Positions 9 through 20,860 of a DNA stretch of 34,720 bases are shown piece after piece. The stretch covers positions 1 to 34,720 of the forward strand of contig RBNJ01000270.1 of NCBI GenBank assembly GCA_003990765.1, read 5' to 3'. Both the position numbers and the translations under genes were made by a program. The notes under the pieces were generated by a model. That model was not told the origin of the DNA. It saw nothing but the letters and a program-made list of their open reading frames with translations, and ran no database searches. Within the stretch, counting starts at the first letter, position 1. Every line of letters starts with the position of its first letter. This DNA is from Jimgerdemannia flammicorona. Taxonomy: Eukaryota.

Positions 9-43
<35 letters not shown>
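9..43 (-). repeat. Poly(A) tail of the minus-strand family A copy (T35 on +)
   Basis: T run directly abuts ATAAAAC, the reverse complement of the repeat end GTTTTAT. Confidence 0.8.
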
Positions 44-47
<4 letters not shown>

Positions 48-528
48 AACAAGTAGATAATAGCGGAAGAGTTTAGAGCGAGATGTGATACTGTTACGGC
101 AGATATGAAGGTCGGCAGTAAAAGGTCAAACAGTTATGAAAAGCTTATGCGAATTTTCACGACGGAACAGAAAGTGGAATAAAGTGTTTTCTGAAGCTAG
201 ATCAGCAACCCGCCCTCAGCACCGCAATGTGCGGTGGTCTTTATTCATTTTAAGAAACAAAGTTCAGGTAAACAAAGACACGGATCTAACCCCAGAATTC
301 CGGAATCGGATAGGTGCATAAGTACTCGGACCTTGCCCCGATCCAAACAAAGGTCTGAATTGGGCTTCGTCAATCTACACACGTGATGGGCCATTAAAAA
401 CCCAATATAGTAACAACCGGGAAAAGGTACCGGTCACGTGATCTAATGTTACATAATCAGTAAACAATGCCAAAAACGGAACTAGACCAATGACGCAACA
501 TGTGTTGTCACGTGATTGTCACTTATAG
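44..528 (-). repeat. Family A terminal repeat (pLTR-like), 3' copy of minus element
   Basis: Direct repeat of 3930-4414 (offset 3886); reverse complement of 4615-5100 and 8501-8986. Confidence 0.9.
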
Positions 529-728
529 GTTTAAAAACCTAAAAATCGTCGGCACCCGAAGGCGCAGGCGTCAGGCCTAGAGCCTTGCGACCAGAGCGGA
601 GTAGAGCCTCAGCACCGGAGTGAGCGAAGCGAGCGGAGGTAGACAGGTGTCACGGAGCGTAGGTATGCAGGCATCAGGCCTAGAGCCTCGCGCCGGAGGT
701 TGTCCAGTGATTTTTCGCGTTTTTAAAC
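529..728 (-). other. Family A 200-bp GC-rich inverted-repeat-bounded module
   Basis: Begins GTTTAAAAAC and ends GTTTTTAAAC; internal direct repeat CAGGCCTAGAGCCT; contains GAGCGAAGCGAG. Confidence 0.85.
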
Positions 729-758
729 ATCGCACAGCACATACAAGCGGTGCGGCCT

Positions 759-2771
759 TCAAGGAGGACTTAGAGCGAAGCTGGTGTTTGAGACGGCATT
801 AAGAACAGTAAAACTGTTCTTTCGGGTGATGATTGGTCGCCGGGCGGTTGCAGGGAAACCAAAACGAAGCAAAGCGGTATGTAGAGTCTTGTCAGGCTGT
901 TGATGTAGCCATCGGGCCATGTCGTATTGGATGACAAGCAATGGGGGAGGAAAAGCGGAGTGGGGGATAGGGGGGTGGGAAATAAGAGGAGGGGTGAGAA
1001 GTGAAGTTCAGACCTCAAGCCAATCAAACAAACTCAATTGAGCAGTTACAACATCAACAGGGTATCCTTTCCTGTGAACCAGGAACTCGGTCAGAGACCG
1101 ACACTCATCAAGCCAATCACAGCGAGAAGAGCAGAGTAGCGAAAGGTGGCGGGCCTCGTTCACGATGCATAGACGGAGCATCTTCCTAGGATGATTGCTC
1201 AACTAGTCAACAAACTGAGTACTACATGGGAACTTAGCAAAGTGGCCTATGCAGAACGGTGCGACTCGGATTTCCAGGTCTAAGTAATGGCATGGTCCGG
1301 CGGACAAGACTTCCCATTCAATATGATGGTGCGGAGGGTACACGGCAGCAAAGATCGAGGCCAAGTCTATGATCGCGGGTGTAAAGACGATAAGATCATC
1401 AATATACCAGCGGAACTTTAGCTCGGCAGCAACGGCTCAGCTAAGCAGATGATCGGGCGCTTGCAAGGCGTACAACTCATAAGCAAAACCAACAAGATTG
1501 GTAAGGTCTGGAGCACAATTAGTGCCCATAGCAATACCAGTCACAGAGCAGAAGGAACCGATGGCAGATGTAAATGTTGTATGAGTCATGACTATGCGGA
1601 TAAGGCTGAGAATGGCTTCAAGTGGCAAGGAGCTAGAGGGGAAGGCCACCGTCAACAAAAAGGTGAGGCAGTCAATGTACTCATCTAATGTGATCCTGGT
1701 GTAGAAGGCAGCGAAATCTCCAGTAGCGATGTATAAGCAATCTGACATATCAAGGTAATCCGATCAAACCAATTGAAGCAGTTTGAGCATATCATACAGA
1801 GGTGAATAACAGGAATAACCCACATTACAGTGCAGATGGGCCGACCACAGACGGAGAAAGCGAGATAGGAAACGCGAAATCTCGGTTGTGGGAGAGTTAA
1901 ACGCACCAACGATAGGGCGCCATACCACATGAGCCCCTTTGTGTACCTTGGGCAGAGCGTGAAACATGGGTAGCTTACAATCGATGGGCTCCATGAGGTG
2001 TTCCCAAATCGGCATACAATCATGATCGCCGATGCAGAACTCGAGTAGACTAAGAAGGTCTAGCCTCACTAATTCCTTAACGTTATCAATCGTAGAGGGA
2101 TCATTCACATACGCAGGATCATGAAGGAGAGACCGAAGACTGTCGAGATAAAGAGTGCGCGGTATAATGGCGAACCCCAGATTCTTGTCGGTAAGACAGA
2201 CAGTGAAGTCATCATGAGTACAGACACCTTTAAGAAGGTGGCAGAACTTCTTCGGTACAAGCGCGCCGGACACATTCGTCGTGGGTCAGACAGCTTGATT
2301 CAAGGTGGCACTCATATGGAGCATAATCTGCATATTTTCCATACAGTGCAGCAGTCGCCATTTAGATGGCACCCAGGTGGAGATCTCCGGGATGTCATCA
2401 GGATTACCCATAGAGGTCCAGAAGGTGGCAAGGTCAAGATGCCATTGGAATGACGACAACGAAATTGGGTTGATGGTGCTGTTCATCGATGCCGACCTGG
2501 GGAGAACAAACTTAGGGCCAAAGTTCAGCATATACGTGAGCTCGGGGGTAAGCCAAGGCGGAGGTATATCGGTAACAAAGCCCTCCTCGGTAAACATCTG
2601 AAACCGAGGGACAAAAAACTGACTTAATCGAGAACTGGGAAGAGAAGACATGAAGGTAAAATCCTCAATTGGTGTCGAGGCCGCTACCCCACGTGGAATG
2701 GGGACATCGGGGCCAAACCACGCTGCTGGGAAGTCATATAAGACTTCCGGGCTGGGGACCTCTAGTTTTTT
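759..2771 (-). pseudogene. Family A PLE reverse transcriptase, interrupted by nonsense codons
   Basis: Same-frame fragments 2286-2651, 1764-2273, 1437-1748, 1008-1202 and 759-941 match the 6378-8207 protein (TDKN, LPKVHK..WRPIV, GDFAAFYT, GIAMGTNCAP, SNHP). Confidence 0.9.
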
Positions 2772-3919
2772 GACGCTAGAGGACAGGCATCACTGGCATT
2801 ATGCCAGACGACATGACGTTTAGTGGCAGTACACTTGTTGCACTGTGGCATAAATGCCCTGGCAGCGCTCTTAGATAAGCAGCTCGAAGTCGATGAGCGG
2901 CTAGTCCTGGTAGAAGTGGAGGAAATGGACAGGGAAGGCGAAGCCTTACACGCTCGCTTGACCCCTTTTACAGAACCTACTGTCAAAGCAGAGGCTAGGG
3001 GGCAAGGACCCCAGTGGGCCTTCGTCGGTACACCAAGACGTCCAGAACAGCTGTGACAGTTCGGCGCGGCAGAGGCCGAAGTCACATCCACCACCTTGGC
3101 CTTTCCTGCAGCCCCCGCAGGTACGGCGGTAGAGGGTGGGGGGGTGGGGACACTCTTTTTCGGTCAGGCGGAACCGGCAGCAGAGGCAAACGTGCATTTA
3201 GCATCCAGAGTAACAATCTCGAGGCGCTTCCCAAGCTCCTCAACCACAGCTTTGCGGGCGGCGGCAGAAATCCCATCTTGCAGGGAGGAGGACGCAGGGA
3301 CAGTCGGGTGGACTGCAGCAGCAGCAGCTTTAGCAGCGGCGGCAGTGGCAAGATAGCGAGATTGACGCATGACAACATCAAAACCACGGAACAAGAACAA
3401 GTTTGTCTTAGCTCTGTCGGTAGCAGCAAGGGTAGCAATATTCTTGGCAACCCCAAGAGTGATATCGACTGATACACCAAAAAACTGATGGGCATCGGAA
3501 GAACCACCCATGGCCTTGTTGATTTTAGCACGCTGGTCCTTAGCATGCTGGGCGGCAGCTTCTTGATCAGAAACGGCAGCCTCGATCGCGGCAGTGGTAC
3601 AGCGCTTAGCTTCTGCCGAAGCAGTAGCAAGGGTGGCATCACGCTGCTCCTTAGGTAGGAGGGCGATGGTAGCAGCTACCTTCTTGGAAGGAGTAAACCT
3701 CCAATCGGCAACTTGGGCCCGTAGGAAATTGGCATGGCATTCTTTCATGGCGGCGATCTCAAGGACAGAGAGCACTCCGGTGCAAGCAGCACGGAAGTAG
3801 GTAGGGACCTCGGCAGACGCGGCAGCAACATAGGCTGCAAGGTTGTCGAACTCCGCCAAATCGGCGAAGGAAGCTTTGGGGATGGCAGCATCGCCATCTA
3901 CATTCATATTATCTGTCAT
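2762..3919 (-). pseudogene. Family A ORF1 (Ala-rich, two CCHC-type fingers) with one internal stop
   Basis: ORFs 3164-3919 and 2762-3094 match 5110-6267; CGA has become TGA at 3164-3166. Confidence 0.88.
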
Positions 3920-3925
3920 GTTGTG

Positions 3926-4414
3926 TATTATAAAACGAGTAGATAATAGCGGAAGAGTTTAGAGCGAGATGTGATACTGTTACGGCAGATATGAAGGTCA
4001 GCGGTAAAAGGTCAAACAGTTATGAAAAGCTTATGTGAATTTTCATGACGGAACAGAAAGCGGAATAAAGTGTTTTCCGAAACTAGATCAGCAACCCGCC
4101 CTCAGCACCGCAATGCGCGGTGGTCTTTATTCATTTTAAGAAACAAAGTTCGGGTAAACAAAGACACAGATCTAACCCCAGAATTCCGGAATCAGATAGG
4201 TGCATAAGTACTTGGACCTTGCCCCGATCCAAACAAAGGTCTGAATCGGACTTCGTCGATCTACACACATGACAGGCCATTAAAAACCCAATATAGTAAC
4301 AACCGGGAAAAGGTACCGGTCACGTGATCTAATGTTATACAATCAGTAAACAATGCCAAAAACGGAACTAGACCAATGATGCAATACGTGTTGTCATGTG
4401 ATTGTCACTTATAG
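3926..4414 (-). repeat. Family A terminal repeat, 5' copy of minus element
   Basis: Direct repeat of 44-528; ends a few bases before the ORF1 ATG at 3919. Confidence 0.9.
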
Positions 4415-4614
4415 GTTTAAAAACCTAAAAATCGTTAGCACCCGAAGGCGCAGGCATCAGGCCTAGAGCCTCACGACCGGAGCGGAGTAGAGCCTCGGCA
4501 CTGGAGCGAGCGAAGTAAGCGGAGGTAGACAGGCATCACAGAGCGTAGGTACGCAGGCATCAGGCCTAGAGCCTCGCGCCGGAGGTTGTCCGGCAATTTT
4601 TCGCGTTTTTAAAC
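4415..4614 (-). other. Family A GC module forming the centre of the palindrome
   Basis: Same orientation as 529-728; the symmetric arms begin at its terminal GTTTAAAAAC/GTTTTTAAAC. Confidence 0.9.
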
Positions 4615-5103
4615 CTATAAGTGACAATCACATGACAACATGTGTTGTGTCATTGGTCTAGTTCTGTTTTTGGCATTGTTTACTGATTGTGTAACATTAG
4701 ATCACGTGACCGGTACCTTTTCCTGATTGTTACTATATCGGGTTTTTAATGGCCCATCACGTGTGTAGATCGACGAAGCCTGATTCAGACCTTTGTTTGG
4801 ATTGGGGCAAGGTCCGAGTACTTATGCACCTATCCGATTCCGGAATTCTGGGGTTAGATCTGTGTCTTTGTTTACCCGAACTTTGTTTCTTAAAATGAAT
4901 AAAGACTACTGCGCATTGCGGTGCTGAGGGTGGGTTGCTGATCTAGCTTCGGAAAACACTTTATTCCGCTTTCTGTTCTGTCGTGAAAATTCACATAAGC
5001 TTTTCATAACTGTTTGACCTTTTACCACCAACCTTCATATCTGCTGTAACAGTATCACATCTCGCTCTAAACTCTTCTGCTATTATCTACTTGTTTTATA
5101 ATA
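4615..5103 (+). repeat. Family A terminal repeat, 5' copy of plus element (probable promoter/5'UTR)
   Basis: Direct repeat of 8501-8989; immediately upstream of the ATG at 5110; clustered CACGTG sites. Confidence 0.9.
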
Positions 5104-5109
5104 CACAAT

Positions 5110-6267
5110 ATGACAGATAATATGAATGTAGATGGTGATGCTGCCGTCCCCAAAGCTTCCTTTGCCGATTTGACGGAGTTCGACAACCTTGCAGCCTATG
5201 TTGCTGCCGCGTCTGCCGAGGTCCCTACCTACTTCCGTGCTGCTTGCACCAGAGTGCTCTCTGCCCTTGAGGTCGCCACCGCGAAAGAACGCTGTGCCGA
5301 TTTCCTATGGGCCCAAGTTGCCGATTGGAGGTTTACTCCTTCCAAGAAGGTAGCTGCTGCCATCGCCCTCTTACCTGAGGAGCAGCGTGATGCCGCCCTT
5401 GCTACTGCTTCGGCAGAAGCTAAGCACTATGCCATTGCCGCGATTGAGGCTGCCGTTTCGGATCAAGAAGCTGCCGCCCAGCATACTAAGGACCAGCATG
5501 CTAAAATCGACAAGGCCATGGGTGGTTCTTCCGATGTCCATCAGTTTTTTGGTGTATCGGTCGATATCACTCTTGGGGTTGCCAAGAATATTGCTACCCT
5601 TGCTGCCACCAACAGAGCTAAGACGAACTTGTTCTTGTTCTGTGGTTTTGACATTGTCGTGCATCAATCTCGCCGTCTTGCCGCCGCCGCCGCTGCTAAA
5701 GCCGCCGCTGCTGCAGTCCGTCTGACTGTCTCTGCATCCTCCTCCCTGCAAGATGGGATTTCTGCCACCGCCCGCAAAGCCATGGTTGAGAAGCTTGGGA
5801 AGCGCCCCGAGATTGTTACTCCGGGTGCTAAACGCACATTTGCCTCTGCTGCTGGTTCCGCCCGACCGAAAAAGAGTATCCCCACCCCCCCACCCTCTAC
5901 CGCCGTGCCTGCGGGGGCTGCGGGAAAGGCCAAGGTGGTAGATGTGACTTCGGCCTCTGCCACGCCGAACTGTCGCAGCTGTTCTGGATGTCTTGGTGTG
6001 CCGACGAAGGCCCACTGGGGTCCTTGCCCCCTAGCCTCTGCTTCGACAGTAGGTTCTGTAAAAGGGGTCAAGCGAGTGCGTAAGGCTTCGCCTTCCCCAT
6101 CCATTTCCTCCACTTCTACTGGGACCAGCCGCTCGTCGACTTCAAGCTGCTCGTCTAAGAGCGCTGCCAGGGCATTTGTGCCGCAGTGCAACAAGTGTAC
6201 TGCCACTAAACGTCATGTCGTCTGGCATAATACTGGCAATGCCTGTCCTCTAGCGTCAAAAAACTAG
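5110..6267 (+). CDS. Family A ORF1, 385 aa, Ala-rich helical region plus two C-terminal CCHC-type zinc fingers (Gag-like role inferred)
   Basis: Intact ORF containing CRSC-x10-H-x3-C and CNKC-x9-H-x5-C; same architecture as family B ORF1. Confidence 0.85.
   Translation: MTDNMNVDGDAAVPKASFADLTEFDNLAAYVAAASAEVPTYFRAACTRVLSALEVATAKERCADFLWAQVADWRFTPSKKVAAAIALLPEEQRDAALATASAEAKHYAIAAIEAAVSDQEAAAQHTKDQHAKIDKAMGGSSDVHQFFGVSVDITLGVAKNIATLAATNRAKTNLFLFCGFDIVVHQSRRLAAAAAAKAAAAAVRLTVSASSSLQDGISATARKAMVEKLGKRPEIVTPGAKRTFASAAGSARPKKSIPTPPPSTAVPAGAAGKAKVVDVTSASATPNCRSCSGCLGVPTKAHWGPCPLASASTVGSVKGVKRVRKASPSPSISSTSTGTSRSSTSSCSSKSAARAFVPQCNKCTATKRHVVWHNTGNACPLASKN
6258..6264 (+). promoter_or_regulatory. Putative -1 ribosomal frameshift heptamer A AAA AAC
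   Basis: In ORF1 phase just before its TAG. The -1 frame is open for 38 codons into the RT ORF and encodes YDFPAAWFGPDVP, homologous to family B NFPPAWFSPDVP. Confidence 0.75.
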
Positions 6268-8270
6268 AGGTCCCCAGCCCAGAAGTCTTATATGACTTCC
6301 CGGCAGCGTGGTTTGGCCCCGATGTCCCCATTCCACGTAGGGTAGCGGCCTCGACACCAATTGAGGATTTTGCCTTCGTGTCTTCTCTTCCCGGTTCTCG
6401 ATTAAGTCAGTTTTTCGTCCCTCGGTTTCAGATGTTTACCGAGGAGGGCTTTGTTACTGATATACCTCCGCCTTGGCTTACCCCCGAGCTCACGTATATG
6501 CTGAACTTTGGCCCTAAGTTTGTTCTCCCCGGGTCGGCATCGATGAACAGCACCATTGACCCGATTTCATTGTCGTCGTTCCAACGGCGTCTTGACCTTG
6601 CCACCTTCTGGACCTCTATGGGTAATCCTGACGACGTCCCGGAGATCTCCGCCTGGGTGCCATCTAAATGGCGACCACCGCACTGTATGGAAAATATGCA
6701 GATTATGCTCCATATGAGTGCCGCCTTGAATCAAGCTATCCGACCCATGACGAATGTGTCCAGCGTACTTGTACCGAAGAAGTTCTGCCACCTTCTTAAA
6801 GGCATCCGTACTCATGATGACTTCACTGTCTGTCTTACCGACAAGAATCTGGGGTTCGCTGTTATATTGCGCGCTCTTTATCTCGACGGTCTTCGGTCCC
6901 TTCTTTACGATCCTGCATACATGAATGATCCCTCTACGATTGATAACGTTAAGGAATCAGTGAGGCTAGACCTTCTTAGTCTACTCGAGTTCTGCATTGG
7001 CGATCATGATTGTATGCCGATTTGGGAACACCTCATGGAGCCCATCGATTGTAAGCTACCCGTGTTTCACGCTCTGCCCAAGGTACACAAAGGGGCTCAC
7101 ATGGCATGGCGCCCTATCGTTGGTACGTTTAACTCTCCCACGACCAAGATTTCGCGTTTCCTATCTCGCTTTCTCCATCTGTGGTCGGCCCATCTGTGCT
7201 ATAATGTGGGTTATTCCCGTTATTCACCTCTGCGTGATATGCTCGAACTGCTTCAATTGGTTCGATCGGATTACCTTGATGTGTCAGATTGCTTATACGT
7301 CGCTACTGGAGATTTCGCTGCCTTCTATACCAGAATCACATTAGATGAGTGCATTGACTGCCTCACCTTTTTGTTGATGGTGGCCTTCCCCCCTGGCTCC
7401 TTGCCGCTTGAAGCCATTCTCGGCCTTGTCTGTATAGTCATGACTCATACGACGTTTATATCCGCCATCGGTTCCTTCCGCTCTGTGACTGGTATTGCTA
7501 TGGGCACTAATTGTGCTCCAGACCTTGCCAATCTTGTTGGTTTTGCTCATGAGTTGCATGCCTTGCAAGTGCCTGATCATCTGCTTAGCCGAGCCGTCGC
7601 TGCCGAGCTAAAGTTCCGCCGGTATATTGATGATCTTATTGTCTTTACGCCCGCAATCATGGACTTGGCCTCGATCTTTGCTGCCGTGTACCCTCTGCAC
7701 CATCGTATCGAATGGGAAGTCTTGTCCGCCGGACCATGCCATTACTTAGACCTGGAAATCCAAGTCGCACTGTTCCACACAGACCGCTTTGCTAAGTTCC
7801 CGCGTAGTACTCAGTTTGTTGACTGGTTGAGCAATCATCCTAGGAAGACGCTCCGTCTATGCATCGTGAACAAGGCCCGCTGCCTTTCGCTACTCTGCTC
7901 TTCTCGCCGTGATTGGCTTGATGAGTGTCGGTCTCTGGCCAAGTTCCTGGTTCACAGGAAAGGATACCCTGTTGATGTTGTAACCGCTCAATTGAGTTTG
8001 GTTGATTGGCTTGAGGTCCAAACTTCACTTCTCACCCCTCCTCTTATTTCCCACCCCCCTATCCCCCACTCTGCTTTTCCTCCCCCATTGCTTGTCATCC
8101 AATACGACACGGCCCGATGGCTACATCAACAGCCCGACAAGACTCTACGTACCGCTTTGCTTCATTTTGGTTTCCCTGCGACCGCCCGGCGACCAATCAT
8201 CACCTGAAAGAACAGTTTTACCGTTCTTAATGCCGTCTCAAACACCAGCTTCGCTCTAAGTCCTCCTTGA
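6264..8270 (+). CDS. Family A Penelope-like reverse transcriptase with no endonuclease domain; premature TGA at 8205-8207, consensus stop 8268-8270
   Basis: Motifs LTDKNLG, FHALPKVHK..WRPIVG..SPT, GDFAAFYT, GIAMGTNCAPDLANL, RRYIDD, HYLDL, SNHP. The minus copy reads through with Arg at the premature stop. Confidence 0.92.
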
Positions 8271-8300
8271 AGACCGCACCGCTTGTACATGCCGTGCGAT

Positions 8301-8500
8301 GTTTAAAAACATGAAAAATCGCCGGACAATCACCGGCGCGAGGCTCTAGGCCTGACACCTGCATACCTACGCTCCGTGACACCTGTCTACCTCCGCTCGC
8401 TTCACTCGCTCCGGTGCCGAGACTCTACTCCACTCCGGTCGCGAGGCTCTAGGCCTGACGTCTACACCTTCGGGTGCCGACGATTTTTAGATTTTTAAAC
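8301..8500 (+). other. Family A GC module downstream of RT
   Basis: GTTTAAAAAC..AAAAATCG at start and CGATTTTT..TTTTTAAAC at end; reverse complement of 529-728. Confidence 0.85.
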
Positions 8501-9005
8501 CTATAAGTGACAATCATGTGACAACACGTGTTGCATCATTGGTCTAGTTCCGTTTTTGGCATTGTTTACTGATTGTGTAACATTAGATCACGTGACCGGT
8601 ACCTTTTCCCAGTTGTTACTATATTGGGTTTTTAATGGCCTGTCACGTGTGTAGATTGACGAAGCCCGATTCAGACCTTTGTTTGGATCGGGGCAAGGTC
8701 CGAGTACTTATGCACCTATCCGATTCCGGAATTCTGGGGTTAGATCCGTGTCTTTGTTTACCCGAACTTTGTTTCTTAAAATGAATAAAGACCACCGCGC
8801 ATTGTGGTACTGAGGGTGGGTTGCTGATCTAGCTTTGGAAAATACTTTATTCCGCTTTCTGTTCCATCATGAAAATTTGCATAAGCTTTTCATAACTGTT
8901 TGACCTTTTACTGCTGACCTTCATATCTGCCATAACAGTATCACATCTCGCTCTAAACTCTTCTGCTATTATCTACTCGTTTTATAATAAAAAAAAATAA
9001 AAAAA
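8501..9005 (+). repeat. Family A 3' terminal repeat plus A-rich tail
   Basis: Repeat of 4615-5103, followed by an A-rich run instead of ORF1. Confidence 0.88.
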
Positions 9006-9054
9006 TTAGTTATGAGTCTTTTGAGATATCTATTAGAATGTATCTATATTGGCA
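9005..9054 (+). repeat. 50-bp flanking sequence identical to 21053-21102 (probable remnant of target duplication)
   Basis: ATTAGTTATGAGTCTTTTGAGATATCTATTAGAATGTATCTATATTGGCA occurs at both places. Confidence 0.85.
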
Positions 9055-9375
9055 GAGGAGGAAGAAGGCCCAGCGGGAGCCAAGGGAGCAAACCCAGAGC
9101 CAGTGTCAAAACAAACGGAAGACATGTGGAAGAGCATGTATAAGGGGGACGAACAAAGAACGTAACCGAAAATGCATCAGCCGTTTATTGCCATGTAAAA
9201 ACGCAGTCCTTATATACAAAATACAACATCCCAAAAGGGAGGATGCACCACAACTCAGGGCGAACCGAATTAGGAACCACATGACCACCGGAGATAGGTG
9301 GAGATAAAGGGGGAGCCAATCTCAGTTGTAGGATAAAAATCACAAACAAACACAAACAAAACAAATCCAAATCGA

Positions 9376-9556: not shown

Positions 9557-11605
9557 CTCTCTGGCAGAACCGGAGGTACCAGAAGGTGATGAAAATGCAA
9601 AACAAGAGCGATGGATTGAAGAAGAAATGGAAGGAAGACACGAATGAGCAATCAGAGGGCATCGGGAAAGAGATGAAAGTCCATGGCGTGAAAGAGAAGA
9701 GCGCAGGATGGTATCAGGGCATTGAGCAACCCAGCGAGTATGATCAAATGGTACGATAAGAATTGGGGGTGGGAAAGAAGAGGGGGTACGGAGAGGGTAA
9801 GGGGGGAGAGAGGGAAGGGAGGGGGGATAAAGAGGAGAGAGTAGGGTAGATCGAACAACAGATCATTCAACAGAAGCAAGTAGATCACGAACGATAGAAA
9901 TAGGGTAGGCATGATGATGGACCACGAAGTTGCCAAGAACCCGAACAGCAGACACCCAATAAGAACAACGGGAGCAGCATAATGCAAGACGATGAGCCTC
10001 ACCCCGAATACATTCAAGAAGAGTGCGACGAGGATGATTGGACAAGAAGTCAGGGAACTGTTGGGAATGGGGAAAACGAGAATAAACAACAGTTCGGAAA
10101 GGAGAAAGAGAAATGGAAAGGTCCAAAAAGGGAATACTAGTCATACCGCACACCCAGGTAATAGAATGGTGGGGAGGGTAGACATCCAGGAACACACTAG
10201 GGATATCAACACCAGCAACAGTGAAGACAATAAAGTCATCAATGTATTGGCAAAAGAAGATATCCCCAGCCCGGAACGTAATGGAAAGAGGTGAAGTAAT
10301 ATCACATAATGCACGCAGTTCATGGGCCAGGCCAACGAGGTTGGCAAGGGTGGGGGCACAATTCGTACCCATGGCAATACCAGAAGTCTGGTGAAAGGAG
10401 CCAAGGGCCGACTCAAAATAATTAGAGCCACAGACGAGGAGCGTAAGCTCAACAATAGAAGCCAGCGAAACCAGGGAATCCAAAGGAAAAACCAAGGAAC
10501 CCAAGAAGCGAAGACAATTATCGATCTCATCAAAACGAATAGCAGTATAGAAGGAAGAGAAGTCACCAGAGGCCAAATGGGAAAAGCGATGAACAGGCAC
10601 AATGGTGGAGCAGAGAAGGGCGAGCTCCTGAGTATCGTGAAGAATAGTATACTCAGGCCCAAGATGGTGTTGTAAGAGAGCCATCTAGGAGAGAAAGAAG
10701 TTGGATAACCACTTCGAAATCTCGGTGGTAGGAGAACTGTAAGCAGCCATAATAGGACGCCAAGCCAAAATAGGCTTGTGAACTTTAGGAAGAGCATAGA
10801 AAACTGGAAGAGAAATATCCGGGGAGGACAAAGAGTCCTGGAAGAAGTTAAAAATGGGGTTCACGAATGGGAAATCCGAAAGTGATCTAGCATGAGCCAG
10901 AGAAACCCGAAGAAGAGTGAGAACCTCATCCAATCCAAGAGCACTAGGCTCGTAAGCCATGGCTCGAAGGAGGGCAGAAAGGCCATCAAGGTAGAGCGAC
11001 TTAGGAATAAGTACAAAACCCTGATTCTTATCAGTGACTGTGAGCAGATACATAGGCAATTGCTTGACCGATTTAAGCATGGTATGCATGGCACGGTCCG
11101 AAACCAAGCAAGAGCGAGCTTGTATAGGAATGGACAGTGAGTAAGCCATGTCAAGGAATATGCAGTGTGAAGAGACATTGAGAGGGGGGACCCAATCACT
11201 AGGGACAAAGTAGCGGGAGGGCATCTCACCACGATCTTGAAAGAAAATGGCAAGGTCAAGAGCACGACAAAAATGTGTAAGATGAGCCAGATCAGTGAAG
11301 GAGAATTGTGAGGGAGTCGCAGGAAAAACAAAGTGAGGACCCAAGGATAAGGCAAAGACTTGAAGGGGAGAAAGGGGGCAGTTAGCCAAAGAAAAAGGAG
11401 GAGACAAAAGTGTTCCAAGAGAAGAGTAAACCCGAAAGTTCAGAACAAGCAACTGGGAAAGACGAAGGGGGGACAACATGAGGAACCACTCAGGGTGCAC
11501 CAGAAGCGACGACGGAATCTGAGAAGGGACGGGGACATCGGGGGAGAACCACGCCGGGGGGAAGTTTAAGAGTGGGAGGCCTTCCCCTTCCCTCTGACTT
11601 TTTTT
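9551..11605 (-). pseudogene. Family B PLE reverse transcriptase copy 1, with nonsense codons
   Basis: ORFs 10685-11635 and 9863-10684 are in one frame: TDKNQG, LPKVHK..WRPI, GDFSSFYT, GIAMGTNCAP, YIDD, SNHP. Confidence 0.9.
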
Positions 11606-12794
11606 GAAGGTGGCGAGCCCGACGAATGGGAGCACATCCCGTCAGAGTGCCAGACCTTGCAGCCACAGGCTTTCATGCAGCCCTTACATTCAGGGGCACA
11701 GGTGGAGGAGGCGGAGGAGGAACCAGCAGAGGAGGCCGAAGGTGAGCGAGCAGCTGGAGGGACAGCAGCACGAGGAACACCACCATGAGGACAGACGGAC
11801 TTGGCTGGGTGCCAGTAGGCACAGTGGAGGCAACCGGAGCAGACGCGCAAGGCCAGGCCCTGACAGGGCGAGAACCAAGTTGGCGGCCATACTTGGGGGC
11901 AGGGGGAACGGAGGAGGAAGCCTTGGCGGGGGAGGGGGACCAGGAAGAGGCCGATGAAGCCTGGTTGGGCTTGGTGGGGGTCTTGGTGGGGGTCTTGGAG
12001 AGGGCCTTGGCGGTGGCGGCAGTGAAGGAACGAACCTCAGCACGAGCAGCAGCACGAGCTTCGGCACGGATGGCCTCAGAGACTGAAACCTCGGGGGAGG
12101 TAGGCAGAGGAGCAGTGGCAGTGGCACGAGCAGCGGCGGCAGTACGTGATGACTCTTGCTCGTGAAGGTGAGTAATAAAAGAGGTGCCAGCGAGAAGGAA
12201 ACGATATACAGCGTTGATGTTGGCAGCGACAGAAGGAATGTCTTGGATGGTGAAGCTGCAGAAAGGGGCAGCATCCGAAAGGTGAGAGGAGGCGAAGGCC
12301 ACGAAAGCGGCACAGGCACGTTGGAAGGAGGTGGAAGCAGTGGCGGCGGAAGCAGTGGCAGCATCAGTGGTAGCATCAGTGGCAGCGAGCTTGGTGGTAG
12401 TAGTGGTGGCACGAACCTCTTTGGAGAGGGCTTGGCGGCGGGCCTCGGGGAGAACAGAGTAGCGGACAGCGGGTGGAGCGACGACATCGACATTACAGCG
12501 GAGATGAGCCTCCTTGGCGGAGAGGGCAAGAACCGACTGGAACTGAGAGAGGAGTGGATGACCAGAAGGACAAAGGTCCAGGGGAAGGGAAAGGATGGCA
12601 GAAGAGACATAGGTCTCGAAGGAGACAGTGGCGGGGGTGAAGGCAGGGGGAGGAGGAGGAGGAAGTACCTCATCCATGAGCTCGTCGATGAGGACGGAGG
12701 CCCCGAGGGCAGACAGTACAGCAGAGGAGAAAGAAGGCCCAGCAGGAGCCAAGGGAGCGAACCCAGAGCCAGTGTCAAAACGAACGGAAGACAT
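11566..12794 (-). pseudogene. Family B ORF1 copy 1, frameshifted before the zinc fingers
   Basis: N-terminal part of 11673-12794 plus 11566-11850 together match 17133-18350. Confidence 0.85.
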
Positions 12795-13044
12795 GTGGAA
12801 GAGTGTGTATAAGGGGGACGAATAAAGAATGTAACCGAAAATGCATCAGCTGTTTATTGCCACGTAAAAACACGGTCCTTATATACAAAATACGACGTCC
12901 CAAAAGGGAGAACGTGCCACAACTCGGGGCAAACCGAATTAGGAACCACATGACTGCCGGAGATAGGCGGAGATAAAGGGGGAGCCAATCCCAGTTGCAG
13001 GATAAAAATCACAAACAAACACAAACAAAACAAATCCAAATCAA

Positions 13045-13225
13045 GATTAAAAAACATTCTTGCCCCCTCCGAGGTCTTGCGCTCACTCCGGGGTCTCGGC
13101 CTTACTCTGCTCCCCTCCGCTGCCTTCGGCTCCTTGCTTCGCTCGGGCTCGCTGCGGCTCGCTCCATTTCGGCCTCACCCCTCACTTGCGCTCACCCCTC
13201 TGGGGTCTGCAGATGTTTTTTAATC
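13045..13225 (+). other. Family B GC module at the centre of the palindrome
   Basis: Matches 16702-16882; symmetric arms start at the GATTAAAAAACAT / ATGTTTTTTAATC repeat. Confidence 0.9.
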
Positions 13226-13475
13226 TCGATTTGGATTTGTTTTGTTTGTGTTTGTTTGTGATTTTTATCCTGCAACTGGGATTGGCTCTCCCTTTATCTC
13301 CGCCTATCTCCGGCAGTCATGTGGTTCCTAATTCGGTTCGCCCCGAGTTGTGGCACGTCCTCCCTTTTGGGACGTCATATTTTGTATATAAGGACCACGT
13401 TTTTACGTGGCAATAAACGGCTGATGCATTTTCGGTTACGTTCTTTATTCGTCCCCCTTATACACGCTCTTCCAC

Positions 13476-14692
13476 ATGTCTTCCATTCGTTTTGACACTG
13501 GCTCTGGGTTTGCTCCCTTGGCTCCTGCTGGGCCTTTTTCCTCCTCTGCTGTACCACCTGCCCTCGGGGCCTCCGTCCTCGTCGACGAGCTCATGGATGA
13601 GATACTTCCTCCTCCTCCTCCCCCTGCCTTCACCCCCGCCACTGTCTCCTTCGAGACCTACGTCTCTTCTGCCATCCTTTCCCTCCCCCTGGACCTTCAT
13701 CCTTCTGGTCGTCCGCTCCTCTCTCAGTTCCGGTCGGTTCTTGCCCTCTCCGCCAAGGAGGCTCATCTCCACCATGATGTCGACGTCGTCGCTCCGCCCA
13801 CCATCTGCTACTCTATTCTCCCCGAGGCCCGCTGCCAAGCCCTCTCTGAAGAGGTTTGTGCTGCCACTACTGCCACCAAGCTTGCTGCCGCTGATGCTGC
13901 TGCTGCTTTCGCCGCCACTGCTTCTGCCTCCTTCCAACATACCTGTGCCGCTTTCGTGGCCTTCGCCTCCTCTCGCCTTTCGGATGCTGCCCCTTTCTGT
14001 GGCTTCGCCATCTAAGACATTCCTTCTGTCGCTGCTGACATTGACGCTGTACATCGTTTCCTCCTCACCAGCACCTCTTTTGTTGCTTGCCTTTATGAGC
14101 AGGAGTCATCACATGCTGCCGCCGCTGCTCATGCCGCTGCCACTGCTCCTCTGCCTATCTCCCCCGAGGTTTCGGTCTCCGAGGCCATCCGTGCTGAAGC
14201 TTGTGCTGCTGCTTGTGCTGAGGTTCATTCCTTCGCTGCTGCCGCTGCCAAGGCCCCCTCCAAGACCCCCGCCAAGACCCCCGCCAAGCCCAATCAGGCT
14301 TCGTCGGCCTCTTCCTGATCCCCCTCCCCCACCAAGGCTTCCTTCTCCATTCCCCCTGCCCCAAGCATGGCCGCCAACTTGGTTCTCGCCCTGTCGGGGC
14401 CTGGCCTTGCGCTGTCTGCTCCGGTTGCCTCCATCGTGCCTACTGGCACCCAGCCAAGTCCGTCTGTCCTTATGGTGGTGTTCCTCACGCTGCTGCCCCT
14501 CCAGCTGCTCACTCGCCTTCGGCCTCCTCTGCCGGTTCCTCCTCCGCCTCCTCCATCCGTGCCCCTGAATGTAAGGGCTGCACGAAAGCCTGTGGCTGCA
14601 AGGTCTGGCACTCTGATGGGGTGTGCTCCCATTCGTCGGGCTCGCCACCTTCAAAAAAAGTCAGAGGGAAGGGGAAGGCCTCCCGCTCTTAA
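13476..14692 (+). pseudogene. Family B ORF1 copy 2 (stops and a frameshift)
   Basis: MSSIRFDTGSG start; CAA has become TAA at 14013-14015; matches copy 3. Confidence 0.85.
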
Positions 14693-16707
14693 ACTTCCCC
14701 CCGGCGTGGTTCTCCCCCAGTGTCCCCATCCCTTCTCGGATTCCGTCGTCGCTTCTGGTGTGCCCTGAGTGGTTCCTCATGTTGTCCCCCCTTCGCCTTT
14801 CCCAGTTGCTTGTCCCGAACTTTCGGGTTTACTCTTCTCTTGGAACACTTTTGTCTCTTCCTTTTTCTTTGGCTGACTGCCCTCTTTCTCCCCTTCAAGT
14901 CTTTGCCTTATTCTTGGGTCCTCGCTTTGTTTTTCCTGCGACTCCCTCACAATTCTCCTTCACTGATCCGGCTCGTCTTATACGTTTTCGTCGTGCTCTT
15001 GACCTTGCCATTTTCTTTCAAGATCGTGGTGAGATGCCCTCCTGCTACTTTGTCTCTAGCAATTGGGTCCCTCCTCCCAATGTCTCTTCACACTGCGTAT
15101 TCCTCGACATGGCTTGCTCACTGTCCGTTCCTGGATGAGCTCACTCTTGCTTGGTTTCGGACCATGCTGTGCGTACCGCACTTAAATCGGTCAAGCAATT
15201 GCCTATGCACCTACTCACAGTCACTGATAAGAATCAGGGTTTTGCACTTATTCCTAAGTCGCTCTACCTTGATGGCCTTTCTGCCCTCCTTTGAGCCACG
15301 GCTTACGAGCCTAGTGCTCTTGGATTGGATGAGGTTCTCACTCTTCTTCGGGTTTCTCTGGCTCATGCTAGATCGCTTTCGGATTCCCCGTTCGCGAACC
15401 CCATTTTTAACTTCTTCCAGAACTCTTTGTCCTCCCCGGATGTTTCTCTTCCAGTTTTCTATGCTCTTCCTAAAGTTCACAAGCCTATTCTGGCTTGGCG
15501 TCCTATTACAGCTGCTTACAGTTCTCCTACCACCAAGATTTCGAAGTGGTTATCCTGCTTCTTTCTCTCCTGGATGGCTCTCTTACAACACCGTCTTGGG
15601 CCTGAGTATACTATTCTTCGCGATACTCAGGAGCTCGCCCTTCTCTGCTCCACCATTGTGCCTGTTCATCGCTTTTCCCATTTGGCCTCTGGTGACTTCT
15701 CTTCCTTCTATACTGCTATTCGTTTTGATGAGATCGATGATTGCCTTCGCTTCTTGGGTTCCTTGGTTTTTCCTTTGGATTCCCTGGTTTCGCTGGCTTC
15801 TATTGTTGAGCTTACGCTCCTTGTCTGCGGCTCTAATTATTTTGAGTCGGCCCTTGGCTCCTTTTACCAGACTTCTGGTATTGCCATGGGTACGAATTGT
15901 GCCCCCACTCTTGCCAACCTCGTTGGCCTGGCCCATGAACTGCGTGTGTTACGTGATATTACTTCACCTCTTTCCATTGCGTTCCGGGCTGGGGATATCT
16001 TCTTTCGCCGATACATTGATGACTTTATTATCTTCACTGTTGCTGGTATTGATATCCCTAGTGTGTTCCTGGGCGTCTACCCTCCCCACCATTCTATTAC
16101 CTGGGTGTGCGGTATGACTAGTATTCCCTTTTTGGACCTTTCCATTTCCCTTTCTTCTTTCCAAACTGTTGTTTATTCTCGTTTTCCCCGTTCCCAACAG
16201 TTCCCTGACTTCTTGTCCAATCATCCTCGTTGCACTCTTCTTGAATGTGTTCGGGGTGAGGCTCATCGTCTTGTATTATACTGCTCCTGTCGTTCTGATT
16301 GGGTGTCTGCTGTTTGGGTTCTTGGCAACTTCGTGGTCCATTGTCGTGCCTACCCTATTTCTATTGTTCGTGATCTGCTTGCTTCTGTTGAATGGTCTGT
16401 TGTTTGATCTACCCTACTCTCTCCTCTTTATCCCCCCTCCCTTCCCTCTCTCCCCCCTTACCCTCTCCGTACCCCCTCTTCTTTCCCACCCCCGATTCTT
16501 GTCATACCATTTGATCATGCTTGCTGGGTTGCTCAATGCCCTGATACCGTCCTGCGCTCTTCTCTTTCATGCCATGGACTTTTATCTCTTTCCCAATGCC
16601 CTCTGATTGCTCGTTCGCATCTTCCTTCCATTTCTTCTTCAATCCATCGCTCTCGTTTTGCGTTTTCATCACCTTCTGGTGCCTCCAGTTCTGCCGGAGA
16701 GGATTAA
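14653..16707 (+). pseudogene. Family B PLE reverse transcriptase copy 2, several CGA-to-TGA stops
   Basis: ORFs 14623-15138 and 15325-16407 are in one frame with RRYIDD; the natural TAA lies inside the module inverted repeat. Confidence 0.9.
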
Positions 16708-16882
16708 AAAACATCCTTGCCCCCTCCGGGGTCTCGCGCTCGCTCCGGGGTCTCAGCCTTACTCTGCTCCCCTCTGCTGCCTTCGGCCCCTCGCTTCACT
16801 CGGGCTCGCTGTGGCTCACTCCGTTTCGGCCTCACCCCTCGCTCACGCTCACCCCTCCAGGGTCTGCAGATGTTTTTTAATC
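16702..16882 (+). other. Family B GC module between tandem copies
   Basis: GATTAAAAAACATC...GATGTTTTTTAATC; internal repeat CCCCTCCGGGGTCT. Confidence 0.85.
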
Positions 16883-17132
16883 TCGATTTGGATTTGTTTT
16901 GTTTGTGTTTGTTTGTGATTTTTATCCTGCAACTGGGATTGGCTCCCCCTTTATCTCTGCCTATCTCCGGCGGTCATGTGGTTCCTAATTCGGTTCGCTC
17001 CGAGTTGTGGCACATCCTCCCTTTTGGGATGTCATATTTTGTATATAAGGACCACGTTTTTACGTGGCAATAAATGGCTGATGCATTTTCGGTTACGTTC
17101 TTTGTTTGTCCCCCTTATACATGCTCTTCCAC

Positions 17133-18350
17133 ATGTCTTCCGTTCGTTTTGATACTGGCTCTGGGTTCGCTCCCTTGGCTCCCGCTGGGCCTTCTTCCTC
17201 CTCTGCTGTACCGCCTGCCCTTGGGGTCTCCGTCCTCATCGACAAGCTCATGGATGAGGTACTTCCTCCTCCTCCTCCCCCTGCCTTCACCCCTGCCACT
17301 GTCTCCTTCGAGACCTACATCTCTTCTGCCATCCTTTCCCTCCCCCTGGACCTTCGTCCTTCTGGTCGTCCGCTCCTCTCTCAGTTTCAGTCGGTTCTTG
17401 CCCTCTCCGCCAAGGAGGCTCATCTCCGCTGTGATGTTGACATCATCGCTCCGCCCACTGTCCGCTACTCTGTTCTCCCCGAGGCCCGCCGCCAAGCCCT
17501 CTCCGAAGAGGTTCGTGCCGCCACTGCCACCACCAAGCTCGCTGCCGCTGATGCTGCCACTGCTTCCACCGCCACCGCTTCCGCCTCCTTCCAACGTGCC
17601 TGTGCCGCTTTCGTGGCCTTTGCCTCCTCTCGTCTTTTGGATGCTGCCCCTTTCTGCGGCTTCGCCATCCAAGATGTTCCTTCTATCGCTGCTGACATTG
17701 ACGCTGTATGTCGTTTCCTCCTTGCCGGCACCTCTTTTGTTGCTCGCCTTCACAAGCAGGAGTCATCACGTGCTGCCGCCGCTGCTTGTGCCACTGCCAC
17801 TGCTCCTCTGCCTACCTCCCCCGAGGTTTCGGTCTCCGAGGCCATCTGTGCCGAAGCTCGTGCTGCTGCTTGTGCTGAGGTTCATTCCTTCGCTGCCGCC
17901 GCTGCCAAGGCCCCCTCCAAGACCCCTGCCAAGACCCCTGCCAAGCCCAACCAGACTTCGTTGGCCTCTTCCCGGTCCCCCTCCCCCACCAAGGCTTTCT
18001 CCTCCATTCCCCCTGCCTCCAAGCGTAGCTGCCAACTTGGTTCTCACCCTGTCGGGGCCTGGCCTTGCGCTGTCTGCTCCAGTCACCTCCACTATACCTA
18101 CTGGCACCCGGCCAAGTCCGTCTGTCCTCATGGTGGTGTTCCTCGCACTACTGTCCCTCTAGCTGCTCGCTCGCCTTCGGCCTCCTCTGCCAGTTCCTGC
18201 TCCGCCTCCTCCACCTGTGCCCCTGAATGTAAGGGCTGCACGAAAGCCTGTGGCCATAAGGTCTGGCACTCTGATGGGGTGTGCTCCCATTCATCGGGCT
18301 CGCCACCTTCAAAAAAAGTCAGAGGAAAGGGGAAGGCCTCCTGCTCTTAA
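17133..18350 (+). CDS. Family B ORF1 copy 3, 405 aa, Ala-rich with two CCHC-type zinc fingers
   Basis: Open frame; CAVC-x9-H-x5-C and CKGC-x9-H-x4-C, each with WH. Confidence 0.85.
   Translation: MSSVRFDTGSGFAPLAPAGPSSSSAVPPALGVSVLIDKLMDEVLPPPPPPAFTPATVSFETYISSAILSLPLDLRPSGRPLLSQFQSVLALSAKEAHLRCDVDIIAPPTVRYSVLPEARRQALSEEVRAATATTKLAAADAATASTATASASFQRACAAFVAFASSRLLDAAPFCGFAIQDVPSIAADIDAVCRFLLAGTSFVARLHKQESSRAAAAACATATAPLPTSPEVSVSEAICAEARAAACAEVHSFAAAAAKAPSKTPAKTPAKPNQTSLASSRSPSPTKAFSSIPPASKRSCQLGSHPVGAWPCAVCSSHLHYTYWHPAKSVCPHGGVPRTTVPLAARSPSASSASSCSASSTCAPECKGCTKACGHKVWHSDGVCSHSSGSPPSKKVRGKGKASCS
18311..18317 (+). promoter_or_regulatory. Putative -1 frameshift heptamer A AAA AAA (also 14653-14659 and 11599-11605 minus)
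   Basis: ORF1 reads tcA AAA AAA gtc while the RT frame is -1; a possible pseudoknot follows. Confidence 0.65.
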
Positions 18351-20365
18351 ACTTCCCCCCAGCGTGGTTCTCCCCCAGTGTCCCCGTCCCTTCTCGGATT
18401 CCGTCGTCGCTTCTGGTGCGCCCTGAGTGGTTCCTCATGTTGTCCCCCCTTCACCTTTCCCAGTTGCTTGTCCCGAACTTTCAGGTTTACTCTTCTCTTG
18501 GAACACTTTTATCTCCTCCTTTTTCTTCGGCTGACTGTCCCCTTTCTCCCCTTCAAGTCTTTGCCTTATTCTTGGGTCCTCACTTTGTTTTTCCTGCGAC
18601 TCCCTCACAATTCTCCTTCACTGATCCGGCTCATCTTACACATTTTCGTCGTGCTCTTGACCTTGCCATTTTCTTTCAAGATCGTAGTGAGATGCCCTCC
18701 TGCTACTTTGTCCCTAGCAATTGGGTCTCCCCTCCCAATGTCTCTTCACACTGCGTATTCCTTGACATGGCTTGCTCACTGTCCGTTCCTGGACAAGCTC
18801 GCTCTTGCTTGGTTTCGGACTGTGCCATGCATACCACACTTAAATCGGTCAAGCAATTGCCTATGCACCTGCTCACAGTCACTGATAAGAATCAGAGTTT
18901 TGCACTTATTCCTAAGTCGCTCTACCTTGATGGCCTTTCTGCCCTCCTTCAAGCCATGGCTTACGAGCCTAGTGCTCTTGGATTGGATGAGGTTCTCACT
19001 CTTCTTCGGATTTCTCTGGCTCATGCTAGATTGCTTTCGGATTCCCCATTCGCGAACCCCATTTTTAACTTCTTCCAGGACTCTTTGTCCTCCCCGGATA
19101 TTTCTCTTCTGGTTTTCTATGCTCTTCCTAAAGTTCACAAGCCTATTTTGGCTTGGCGTCCTATTATGGCTGCTTACAGTTCTCCTACCACCGAGATTTC
19201 GAAATGGTTATCCTGCTTCTTTCTCTCCTGGATGGCTCTCTTACAACACCATCTTGGGCCTGAGTATACTATTCTTCGCGATACTCAGGAGCTCACCCTT
19301 CTCTGCTCCACCATTGTGCCTGTTCATCACTTTTCCCATTTGGCCTCTGGTGACTTCTCTTCCTTCTATACTGCTATTCGTTTTGATGAGATCGATGATT
19401 GCCTTCGCTTCTTGGGTTCCTTGGTTTTTCCTTTAGATTCCCTGGTTTCGCTGGCTTCTATTGTTGAGCTTACGCTCCTCATCTGCAGCTCTAATTATTT
19501 TGAGTTGGCCCTTGGCTCCTTTCACCAGACTTCTGGTATTGCCATGGGTATGAATTGTGCCCCCACCCTTGCCAACCTCGTTGGCCTGGCCCATGAACTA
19601 CATGCATTACATGATATTACTTCACCTCTTTCCATTGCTTTCCGGGCTGGGGATATCTTCTTTCACTGATACATTGATGACTTTATTGTCTTCGCTGTTG
19701 CTGGTGTTGATATCCCTAGTGTGTTCCTGGGCGTCTATCCTCCCCACCATTCTATTATCTGGGTGTGCGGTACGACTAGTATTCCCTTTTTGGACCTTTC
19801 CATTTCTCTTTCTCCTTTCCGAACTGTTGTTTATTCTTGTTTTCTCCATTCCCAACAGTTCCCTGACTTCTTGTCCAATCATCCTCATCGCACTCTTCTT
19901 GAATATGTTTGGGGTGAGGCTCGTCGTCTTGCATTATGCTGCTCCCATCGTTCTGATTGGGTGTCTGCTGTTCGGGTTCTTGGCAAATTCGTGGTCCATC
20001 GTCGTGCCTACCCTATTTCTATCGTTCGTGATCTGCTTGCTTCTGTTGAATTGTCTGTTGTTCGATCTACCCTACTCTCTCCTCTTTATCCCCCCTCCCT
20101 TCCCTCTCTCCCCCCTTACTCTCTCCATACCCTCTCTTCTTTCCCACCCCCGATTCTTGTCATACCATTTGATCATGCTCGCTGGGTTGCTCAACGCCCT
20201 GATACTGTCCTGCACTCTTCTCTTTCACGCCATGGACTTTCATCTCTTTCCTGACGCCCTCTGATTGCTCGTTTGCATCTTCCTTCCATTTCTTCTTCAA
20301 TCCATCGCTCTCGTTTTGCGTTTTTGTCACCTTCTGGTACCTCCAGTTCTGCTGGAGAGGATTAA
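18311..20365 (+). pseudogene. Family B PLE reverse transcriptase copy 3, two CGA-to-TGA stops
   Basis: ORFs 18281-19669 and 19721-20254 are in one frame; the first stop falls immediately before YIDD. Confidence 0.9.
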
Positions 20366-20860
20366 AAAACATCCTTGCCCCCTCCAGGGTCTCATGCTCA
20401 CTCCAGGGTCTCGGCCTTACTCTGCTCCCCTCCGCTGCCTTCGGCCCCTCGCTTCGCTCAGGCTCGCTGTGGCTCGCTCTGTTTCGGCCTCACCCCTCGC
20501 TCGTGCTCACCCCTCCAGGGTCTGCAGATGTTTTTTAATCTTGATTTGGATTTGTTTTGTTTGTGTTTGTTTGTGATTTTTATCCTGCAACTGGGATTGG
20601 CTCACCCTTTATCTCCGCCTATCTCCGGCGGTCATGTGGTTTCTAATTCGGTTCACCCCGAGTTGTGGCGCATCCTCCCTTTTAGGACGTCATATTTTGT
20701 ATATAAGGACCGCATTTTTACATGGCAATAAATGGCTGATGCATTTTTGGTTATGTTCTTTGTTTGTCCCCCTTATACACACTCTTCCACATGTCTTCCA
20801 TTCATTTTGACACTGGCTCTGGGTTCGCTTCCTTGGCTCCCGCTGGGCCTTCTTCCTCCT
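20360..20860 (+). repeat. Family B terminal GC module, terminal repeat and first ~70 nt of ORF1
   Basis: Repeat of 16702-17202; similarity stops at CTTCTTCCTCCT. Confidence 0.88.

Follow-up and report, generated by a model that had tools for sequence, protein, structure and literature searches.

Penelope-like elements (PLEs) typically carry partial tandem copies that form pseudo-long terminal repeats (pseudo-LTRs), an inverted and 5'-truncated copy at their 5' end and a tail of 30-40 bp at one end, as described in the accessible sections of PMC8557442. According to the accessible sections of PMC3846280, the pseudo-LTR has palindromes of 18-38 bp at its 5' end, and inverted and direct pseudo-LTRs overlap by 15 bp; endonuclease-deficient PLEs of fungi and protists are said there not to share this organisation. 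A hammerhead ribozyme in the pseudo-LTR is a further PLE feature, reported absent in Naiads and most Chlamys. How PLEs build their tandem and inverted repeats, and how endonuclease-less members insert away from telomeres, is unsettled in the field. Here, we describe positions 1-34,720 of contig RBNJ01000270.1 of Jimgerdemannia flammicorona (the window, 34,720 nt, to which all positions refer), in which two families of elements that we file as endonuclease-less PLEs, family 1 (F1) and family 2 (F2), each form a large palindrome of full-length copies arranged head-to-head.

The locus has much in common with the endonuclease-bearing (EN+) PLEs Penelope, Naiad and Chlamys, as far as these are covered in the accessible sections of PMC3846280 and PMC8557442. 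Shared are partial tandems that give direct terminal repeats including the start of an open reading frame (ORF), a head-to-head inverted copy with a palindrome of ~15 bp overlapping the direct copy, an extension at one end, target-site duplications (TSDs) that are variable or absent, and self-priming as a proposed mechanism. In contrast to the 5'-truncated copies or inverted pseudo-LTRs reported there, the inverted copy here is full length (4.0-4.4 kb). The palindrome is moreover split, with repeats of 10-13 nt around an interior of 155-166 nt, the one-sided extension measures 192 bp instead of 30-40 bp, and neither a GIY-YIG endonuclease nor a hammerhead ribozyme was found. With Coprina and Athena elements (PMC8557442; Coprina-1_Alen in PMC13159263; accessible sections of both), F1 and F2 share the missing endonuclease, the DKN motif, motifs RT1-7 and the thumb, an ORF1 followed by the reverse transcriptase (RT) across a frameshift, and flanking direct repeats. 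They differ from them in having neither reverse-complement telomeric repeats at their 3' ends (F1 ends in poly(A)) nor a hammerhead motif, in their internal or repeat-rich setting, in a TSD-like repeat and in the palindromic head-to-head dimers.

Tandem pseudo-LTRs accompanied by an inverted copy in head-to-head position are thus already known, as is self-priming at palindromic junctions (PMC3846280 and PMC8557442, accessible sections). A preliminary description of this locus had put forward programmed palindromes as a candidate fold-back retroelement system; as a claim of novelty this is too strong, as head-to-head palindromic junctions and self-priming have been published for EN+ Penelope (PMC3846280, accessible sections). 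New are the endonuclease-less lineage, the full-length arms, the split repeat around a 155-166-nt interior and an insertion that appears to be non-telomeric and has a TSD-like repeat. The literature searched, with subscription papers and bioRxiv supplements lying outside the coverage, contained no account of endonuclease-less PLEs that form full-length head-to-head dimers.

In both families, the genes face outward from the centre and the copies therefore stand head-to-head. The two F1 arms comprise 4408 nt each and are 93% complementary without a gap, with 166 nt between them. In F2, the segment 9052-11844 matches 14414-17206 and 18072-20860 in inverted orientation at 93-94%, and 12342-13057 matches 13213-13928 and 16870-17585 in the same manner at 92%. 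Full-length inverted arms, as announced in the preliminary description, are hence present in both families, but the F2 arms are unequal, with ~1.09 units on the left and ~2.09 on the right. Each element is ordered as module, 5' region, ORF1, RT in the -1 frame, a further module and a repeat of the 5' region. The direct terminal repeats are spaced 3886 bp apart in F1 and 3657-3669 bp in F2, so that both families combine direct repeats from partial tandems with inverted head-to-head arms, as expected for PLE pseudo-LTRs. The first 42 codons of ORF1 in the outer right F2 unit (R2) lie within the terminal repeat, and the 3' end of the element therefore falls inside ORF1.

The module is a segment of 181-200 bp that was found ~90 nt downstream of the RT in 5/5 RT copies, bearing out its earlier placement behind every RT; including the two central ones, seven module copies are present. 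It is bounded by A/T-rich inverted repeats of 10-13 nt, with termini GTTTAAAAAC / GTTTTTAAAC in F1 and a 13-nt repeat GATTAAAAAACAT / ATGTTTTTTAATC in F2. In both families the symmetry of the arms begins inside this repeat, again in agreement with the preliminary description. When the module is folded to its minimum free energy, whether as DNA or as RNA and on either strand, the inverted repeat closes the structure; with six foldings for each parameter set, z values lay between -1.7 and -4.9 relative to mononucleotide shuffles. The sequence of the repeat differs between F1 and F2 while its self-complementarity is retained. Because the alignment leaves it ambiguous which positions of the two repeats are homologous, this possible covariation is not counted as proven. 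Homology of the modules of both families, and a turning point within their inverted repeat, are supported. The central module is oriented as the left arm in F1 and as the right arm in F2, as would follow from a centre that begins as a mismatched bubble.

We next consider whether the palindromes are real and how old they are. Palindromic chimeras are known to occur in long reads, and such reads, or an assembly built from them, would be expected to give near-identical arms or indel-type noise. The arms instead differ at 6-8% of positions, and ~98% of the differences are transitions in CpG or CpA context: 289/295 in F1, with zero indels in 4408 nt, and 158/161, 177/185 and 163/169 in the F2 comparisons, the long arms being free of indels. 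In addition, one F1 arm has open frames and the other 7 stops. With C/G taken as the ancestral state, C>T rates amount to 16-21% at CpG, 4% at CpA, 2-3% at CpC and 0.3% at CpT, with about equal effect on the two arms and on the two strands. CpG decay is similar in the two families, 65-71% (F1) or 53-66% (F2) of ancestral CpGs being still intact. Judged by this pattern, the arm differences are attributable to post-copying cytosine deamination of repeated or methylated DNA, mainly at CpG, and the palindromes to old genomic DNA, neither a product of chance nor of assembly. The fold-back artefact that the preliminary description had named as a possible refutation is therefore extremely improbable. 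For the three F2 units, polarised transitions over 2789 nt gave 15, 22 and 16 derived sites shared by a pair against 71, 49 and 75 private ones, and a second segment gave 6, 6 and 5 pair-shared sites. With so few shared derived sites the units form a star, the inverted one being as old as the two in tandem. Indels among the three units are each private to one of them and uninformative on grouping. All four outer arm ends are 3' ends of the element. Since the arms end there and the copies are equally old, each complex by all appearances formed upon integration, either at once or in rapid succession, which upholds the earlier proposal that the palindromes arise with integration. A later origin by host processes, i.e., fold-back repair, replication template switching at a short repeat or a second independent insertion alongside the first, could draw on the repeat-rich region and on reports that short inverted repeats near breaks can seed large palindromes (PMC3907307, PMC6103520 and PMC10766183, accessible sections). 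However, fold-back or a replication error would have copied flanking DNA too, and none of the four arms runs into the flanks; a second insertion would have needed to land its full-length 5' end precisely on the repeat, twice; and the same geometry recurs in two different families with equally old copies in each complex. We regard a host origin as very unlikely. The junction was probably produced by reverse transcription at the time of integration, with the inverted repeat as its guide. In our preferred reading, each element entered as a single complex insertion of the kind known for PLEs, composed of partial tandems (pseudo-LTRs) and a head-to-head inverted copy.

The outer ends bear on how such a junction could have been made. 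The left 3' end of F1 reads ...TTTTATAA followed by A35, the right one ...TTTTATAATA followed by A8TA7; the tails are thus unlike in length and the site of addition is shifted by 2 nt. In F2, the left 3' end reads ...CCTCCTCTGC and the right one ...CCTCCT (the 3' ends are also written ...CTTCCTCC(TCTGC)), and the short arm stops within 4-7 nt of the canonical 3' end, with a 3-nt microhomology (TGC) to the flank. The flanks of F2 are not mirrored. A 50-bp sequence, which joins the F1 tail on its left side and the F2 3' end on its right side, recurs with 50/50 identity beyond the right end of F2 and looks like a TSD of the F2 complex, and the two 3' ends of the first copy look like primers for two different elements. 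The 192-bp extension is confined to the right end of F2 and resembles either a PLE 'tail' as described in the accessible sections of PMC8557442 or a 3' transduction. F1 and F2 may have entered together, as a compound insertion, or separately; of the F1 left flank, 8 nt lie in the window.

Hairpin retroplasmids and the rolling-hairpin replication of parvoviruses rely on a terminal inverted repeat through which the 3' end of a DNA strand folds back and serves as a primer. The preliminary description had proposed a comparable route, in which the 3' end of a single complementary DNA (cDNA) folds back via the module repeat and copies itself into a hairpin. Such a hairpin would later be unfolded, copied and integrated as a palindrome. 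This proposal agrees with the position of the junction exactly in the inverted repeat of both families, with the single module copy at the centre and with the repeat closing the predicted fold of the cDNA-sense strand. The F1 arms are of equal length, and F1 taken alone is compatible with it. Extrachromosomal copying of a hairpin before integration would moreover leave element 3' ends at both outer ends, as seen, and self-priming at palindromic junctions has been proposed before for EN+ Penelope (PMC3846280, accessible sections). Both models, one cDNA snapping back or two cDNAs annealing, predict the same centre; they differ on the outer ends, and there the evidence turns against the hairpin. 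The F2 arms are unequal by one 3658-bp unit (1.09 vs 2.09 units), yet the three units are equally old. The F2 module is oriented as the long arm, which would make the long arm the template; the copy nevertheless ends within 4-7 nt of the canonical 3' end, at a point where this template runs on without a break. The F1 tails differ, A35 against ~18 A-rich nt, and around F2 a perfect 50-bp direct repeat and a one-sided 192-bp extension stand where mirrored flanks would be expected. Unequal arms, unlike tails and direct flanking repeats likewise fit poorly with retroplasmids and parvoviruses, which are autonomous linear replicons with hairpin termini, whereas the present elements are known as integrated DNA alone. 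On these grounds a self-primed hairpin is unlikely, and two separately primed cDNAs are favoured.

In LINE-1 (L1) twin priming, reportedly described by Ostertag and Kazazian in 2001, cDNA synthesis starts from the 3' ends on either side of a staggered break, and a joint at microhomology produces an inversion. In the same manner, two minus-strand cDNAs could here be primed separately from both sides of a staggered break, starting near the 3' end of the RNA. Each cDNA would extend to the 5' end of the RNA, which the model places in the module, and its last 10-13 nt would pair with the other module end in the partner cDNA, so that the two anneal head-to-head. Priming along its partner, each cDNA would then yield the second strand of the other, closing the break without an element-encoded endonuclease, while the unpaired interior of the module could be resolved in either orientation. 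Alternatively, the same terminal sequence may direct a switch onto the 3' module of a different RNA and thereby produce tandem units. All copies were later deaminated at cytosines by the host, mainly at CpG. The proposed scheme shares with twin priming two primed cDNAs that are joined to give an inversion. It differs in that both arms are complete, whereas L1 twin priming is reported to use one RNA and to give two different, non-overlapping segments, one of them inverted, and in that a dedicated 10-13-nt inverted repeat takes the place of chance microhomology. We put the probability that two separately primed cDNAs annealed via the inverted repeat at roughly one half.

Several points weigh against this reading. 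The junctions number two, both in one window, and the constancy of the breakpoint as well as the term 'programmed' inversion depend on them. The RNA 5' end in the module and the cDNA intermediates are both assumed by the model, and the target would have to be nicked without an endonuclease of the element itself. The length of a poly(A) tail can shift by slippage after integration, and a very early unequal crossover could account for the second F2 unit. The 50-bp repeat lies 192 bp away from the right end of F2, in AT-rich surroundings that hold a third copy at 60%, and for these reasons it may be no TSD; for F1, no duplication is readable from the 8 nt of left flank. Hammerhead ribozymes and telomeric repeats, both expected of endonuclease-less PLEs, were not found. 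A wider proposal, namely that the module is a dedicated cis element which lets an endonuclease-less retroelement colonise internal breaks with the full-length head-to-head dimer as its regular integration product, remains speculative and is improbable at present.

The assignment of the elements draws on motifs, fold and layout. The RT frames contain TDKNLGF (F1) or TDKNQGF (F2), LPKVHK, RPI, D..FYT.I, GIAMGTNCAP and YIDD, which we take to be PLE core motifs. DKN is given as a conserved feature of PLE/Coprina in PMC13159263, and DKG and its variants or DKN as diagnostic for PLE RTs in PMC8557442 (accessible sections of both). The two RTs are 39-40% identical in protein, and nucleotide similarity between the families is confined to patches of 40-53 nt, in line with the earlier view of two related families with little similarity at the nucleotide level. 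Pfam returned only weak RVT_1 matches for the RT frames (E<=10) and nothing credible for the ORF1s (E<=1). GIY-YIG was not found by Pfam in the ORFs of the window nor in any of the relatives scanned (0/27), as the claim of missing endonucleases had implied. Both families retain a slippery heptamer in the ORF1 frame where ORF1 and RT overlap, A_AAA_AAC in F1, where it immediately precedes the stop codon of ORF1, and A_AAA_AAA in F2, which suggests programmed -1 frameshifting between ORF1 and RT. Taken together, we file the elements as endonuclease-less PLEs of the Coprina/Athena type.

An AlphaFold model of the RT reached a mean predicted local distance difference test (pLDDT) score of 63.7, with residues 1-188 disordered. 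In a Foldseek comparison against the PDB, telomerase RT occupied ranks 1-3 and 13 of the top 20, with R2 at rank 41 and L1 ORF2p at rank 50; RTs of group II introns, retrons, R2 and L1 all ranked below TERT. Template modelling (TM) scores were only 0.35-0.42. The modelled fold is supportive, not decisive, of telomerase RT as the nearest relative, and PDB sequence searches failed to discriminate between RT classes. The nearest Atlas clusters are rich in rotifers and carry PF26215/PF28514. Relatives are distant: 4 of the 2746 representatives at E<=1e-3 reach E<=1e-30, the best being 46% identical, and among 20 relatives looked up one is annotated from the fungus Racocetra fulgida. Word-based protein searches gave 1 match for the F1 RT and, at E<=1e-10, 2 for profile A2. 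For ORF1, no Pfam family was assigned and the sole Atlas lead was weak (0.75, Basidiomycota).

Hammerhead ribozymes were sought in three ways. Scanning all of the window against Rfam (E<=1) gave 5 matches, all of them miRNA-like and located at 27-29.6 kb; a scan of the two 3' regions at E<=10 gave 4 chance-level matches, none to a hammerhead; and the core CUGANGA...GAAA matched 3 times against 3.56 expected, never within the elements. Deamination could have erased the motif. Of telomere units, (TTAGGG)2 was the only one tried, and with up to 1 mismatch it gave 0 matches in the window.

The right copy of F1 retains ORF1 and RT without stops despite ~134 inferred C>T/G>A changes, in comparison to 7 stops in its mirror copy, and 5110-8207 represents the sole candidate intact copy in the window. 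Evidence for selection on this copy was not obtained: the ratio of synonymous to non-synonymous changes is 31:59 for the right arm and 38:79 for the left. As these ratios are alike in both arms, the open frames may be due to chance.

Table 1 Features of the F1 and F2 palindromes and their flanks in the window.
Feature	Position	Strand	Remark
F1 left arm, full-length copy	24-4431	-	arm comparison
F1 left-copy A35 tail (T35 on + strand)	9-43	-	preceded by A8 at window start
F1 module copy 3' of left RT	529-728	-	
F1 left-copy RT frame	822-2798	-	6 stops
F1 left-copy ORF1	2762-3919	-	1 stop
F1 central module, 200 bp	4415-4614	-	oriented as left arm
F1 central module terminal inverted repeat	4415-4431 / 4598-4614		10-nt perfect core; arm symmetry begins there
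F1 right arm, full-length copy	4598-9005	+	ends ...TTTTATAATA + A8TA7
F1 right-copy ORF1, 385 amino acids	5110-6267	+	no stop; Cys/His knuckle-like motifs at C-terminus
F1 right-copy RT frame, 658 amino acids	6231-8207	+	open, no stop; DKN motif, weak RVT_1 match, TERT-like fold
F1 slippery heptamer A_AAA_AAC (TCA AAA AAC in ORF1 frame)	6256-6264	+	ORF1/RT overlap
F1 module copy 3' of right RT	8301-8500	+	93 nt past RT stop; opens 3' pseudo-LTR
F1 R region of 3' pseudo-LTR	8501-8994	+	~490 nt after module
50-bp sequence between F1 right end and F2 left end	9005-9054	.	
F2 left arm, ~1.09 units	9052-13057	-	arm comparison
F2 module copy 3' of left RT	9376-9556	-	
F2 left-arm RT frame	9644-11641	-	2 stops
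F2 central module, 181 bp	13045-13225	+	oriented as right arm
F2 right arm, ~2.09 units	13213-20860	+	two tandem units (3657/3658 bp) + ~500-bp terminal pseudo-LTR
F2 right-arm first RT frame	14617-16614	+	3 stops
F2 module copy where units R1 and R2 meet	16702-16882	+	
F2 ORF1 of unit R2	17082-18350	+	
F2 right-arm second RT frame	18275-20272	+	2 stops
F2 slippery site TCA AAA AAA in ORF1 frame	18309-18317	+	ORF1/RT overlap; position as in F1
F2 module copy in terminal pseudo-LTR	20360-20540	+	
AT-rich stretch of 192 bp, F2 right end to second 50-bp copy	20861-21052	.	
Second copy of 50-bp sequence	21053-21102	.	50/50 identical

Outside the window, 77 metagenome RT loci with 21-33% identity were collected, their contigs being too short to reveal palindromes. 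None of the 20 loci scanned (0/20) contained an Rfam family at gathering score. Inverted repeats of 11 nt spaced 100-260 nt apart occurred 48 times in the metagenome loci against 18 in shuffles, a number that is inflated by redundant contigs and from which nothing is drawn. Of the 77 contigs, 33 (L001-L077) start and end in the same 43-372 nt at an identity of at least 99%, and L020 consists of a 3196-bp unit repeated ~3.5 times. Such terminal repeats are a signature of circular or tandem units, here of 3-6.5 kb, and distant relatives therefore also occur as head-to-tail arrays, or possibly as circles.

The remainder of the window holds other sequence. The stretch 20861-31000 is old decayed DNA, the part 20861-27000 being strand-biased (G 1588, C 671) and devoid of long ORFs; blastn and tblastn detected no similarity of 20861-31000 to F1 or F2, and it may represent a much older deaminated repeat. 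In the neighbouring 22-31 kb the observed/expected ratio of CpG is 0.00-0.10, and the host evidently erodes CpG in repeats. A hAT transposase remnant is located at 30492-31073 (-), with a Pfam hAT C-terminal dimerisation domain at E 4e-14 and further short frames on the same strand up to ~32.4 kb; a word-based search with the fragment found no match among longer proteins. Adjoining it, a degenerate tandem array at 29732-30336 shows periods of ~85-116 bp and 200 bp (6 copies, 69-77% identity). A 19-nt unit, TGTCCTGCGGACACACTCA, is repeated 3.8 times at 33277-33371 with 98% identity, each unit containing an internal palindrome TGTCC..GGACA. At 27038-27136, a short tandem or hairpin of ATCCAGAT-type units produced sub-threshold Rfam microRNA matches (best 40 bits vs gathering 84). 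A microRNA candidate at this position was rejected, as it lies below the gathering score and is most likely low-complexity sequence.

The locus presents complete head-to-head copies of two diverged families, one of them with open frames, and a joint that is resolved to the nucleotide and lies in a conserved inverted repeat. The module repeat is thereby a defined sequence that can be mutated to study whether a telomerase-related RT switches templates or primes itself. If the wider proposal of a dedicated cis element held true, second-strand synthesis and the sealing of the break would be solved in one step by cDNAs paired via the module repeat. This would constitute a new integration strategy for telomerase-related RTs away from telomeres, and both kinds of PLE pseudo-LTR, tandem and inverted, would follow from one mechanism. 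Should the head-to-head pattern not hold across the genome, the two complexes are simply old, deaminated complex insertions. If it is found genome-wide, it would extend the Penelope architecture to the endonuclease-less lineage and link retroelement cDNA synthesis to break repair.

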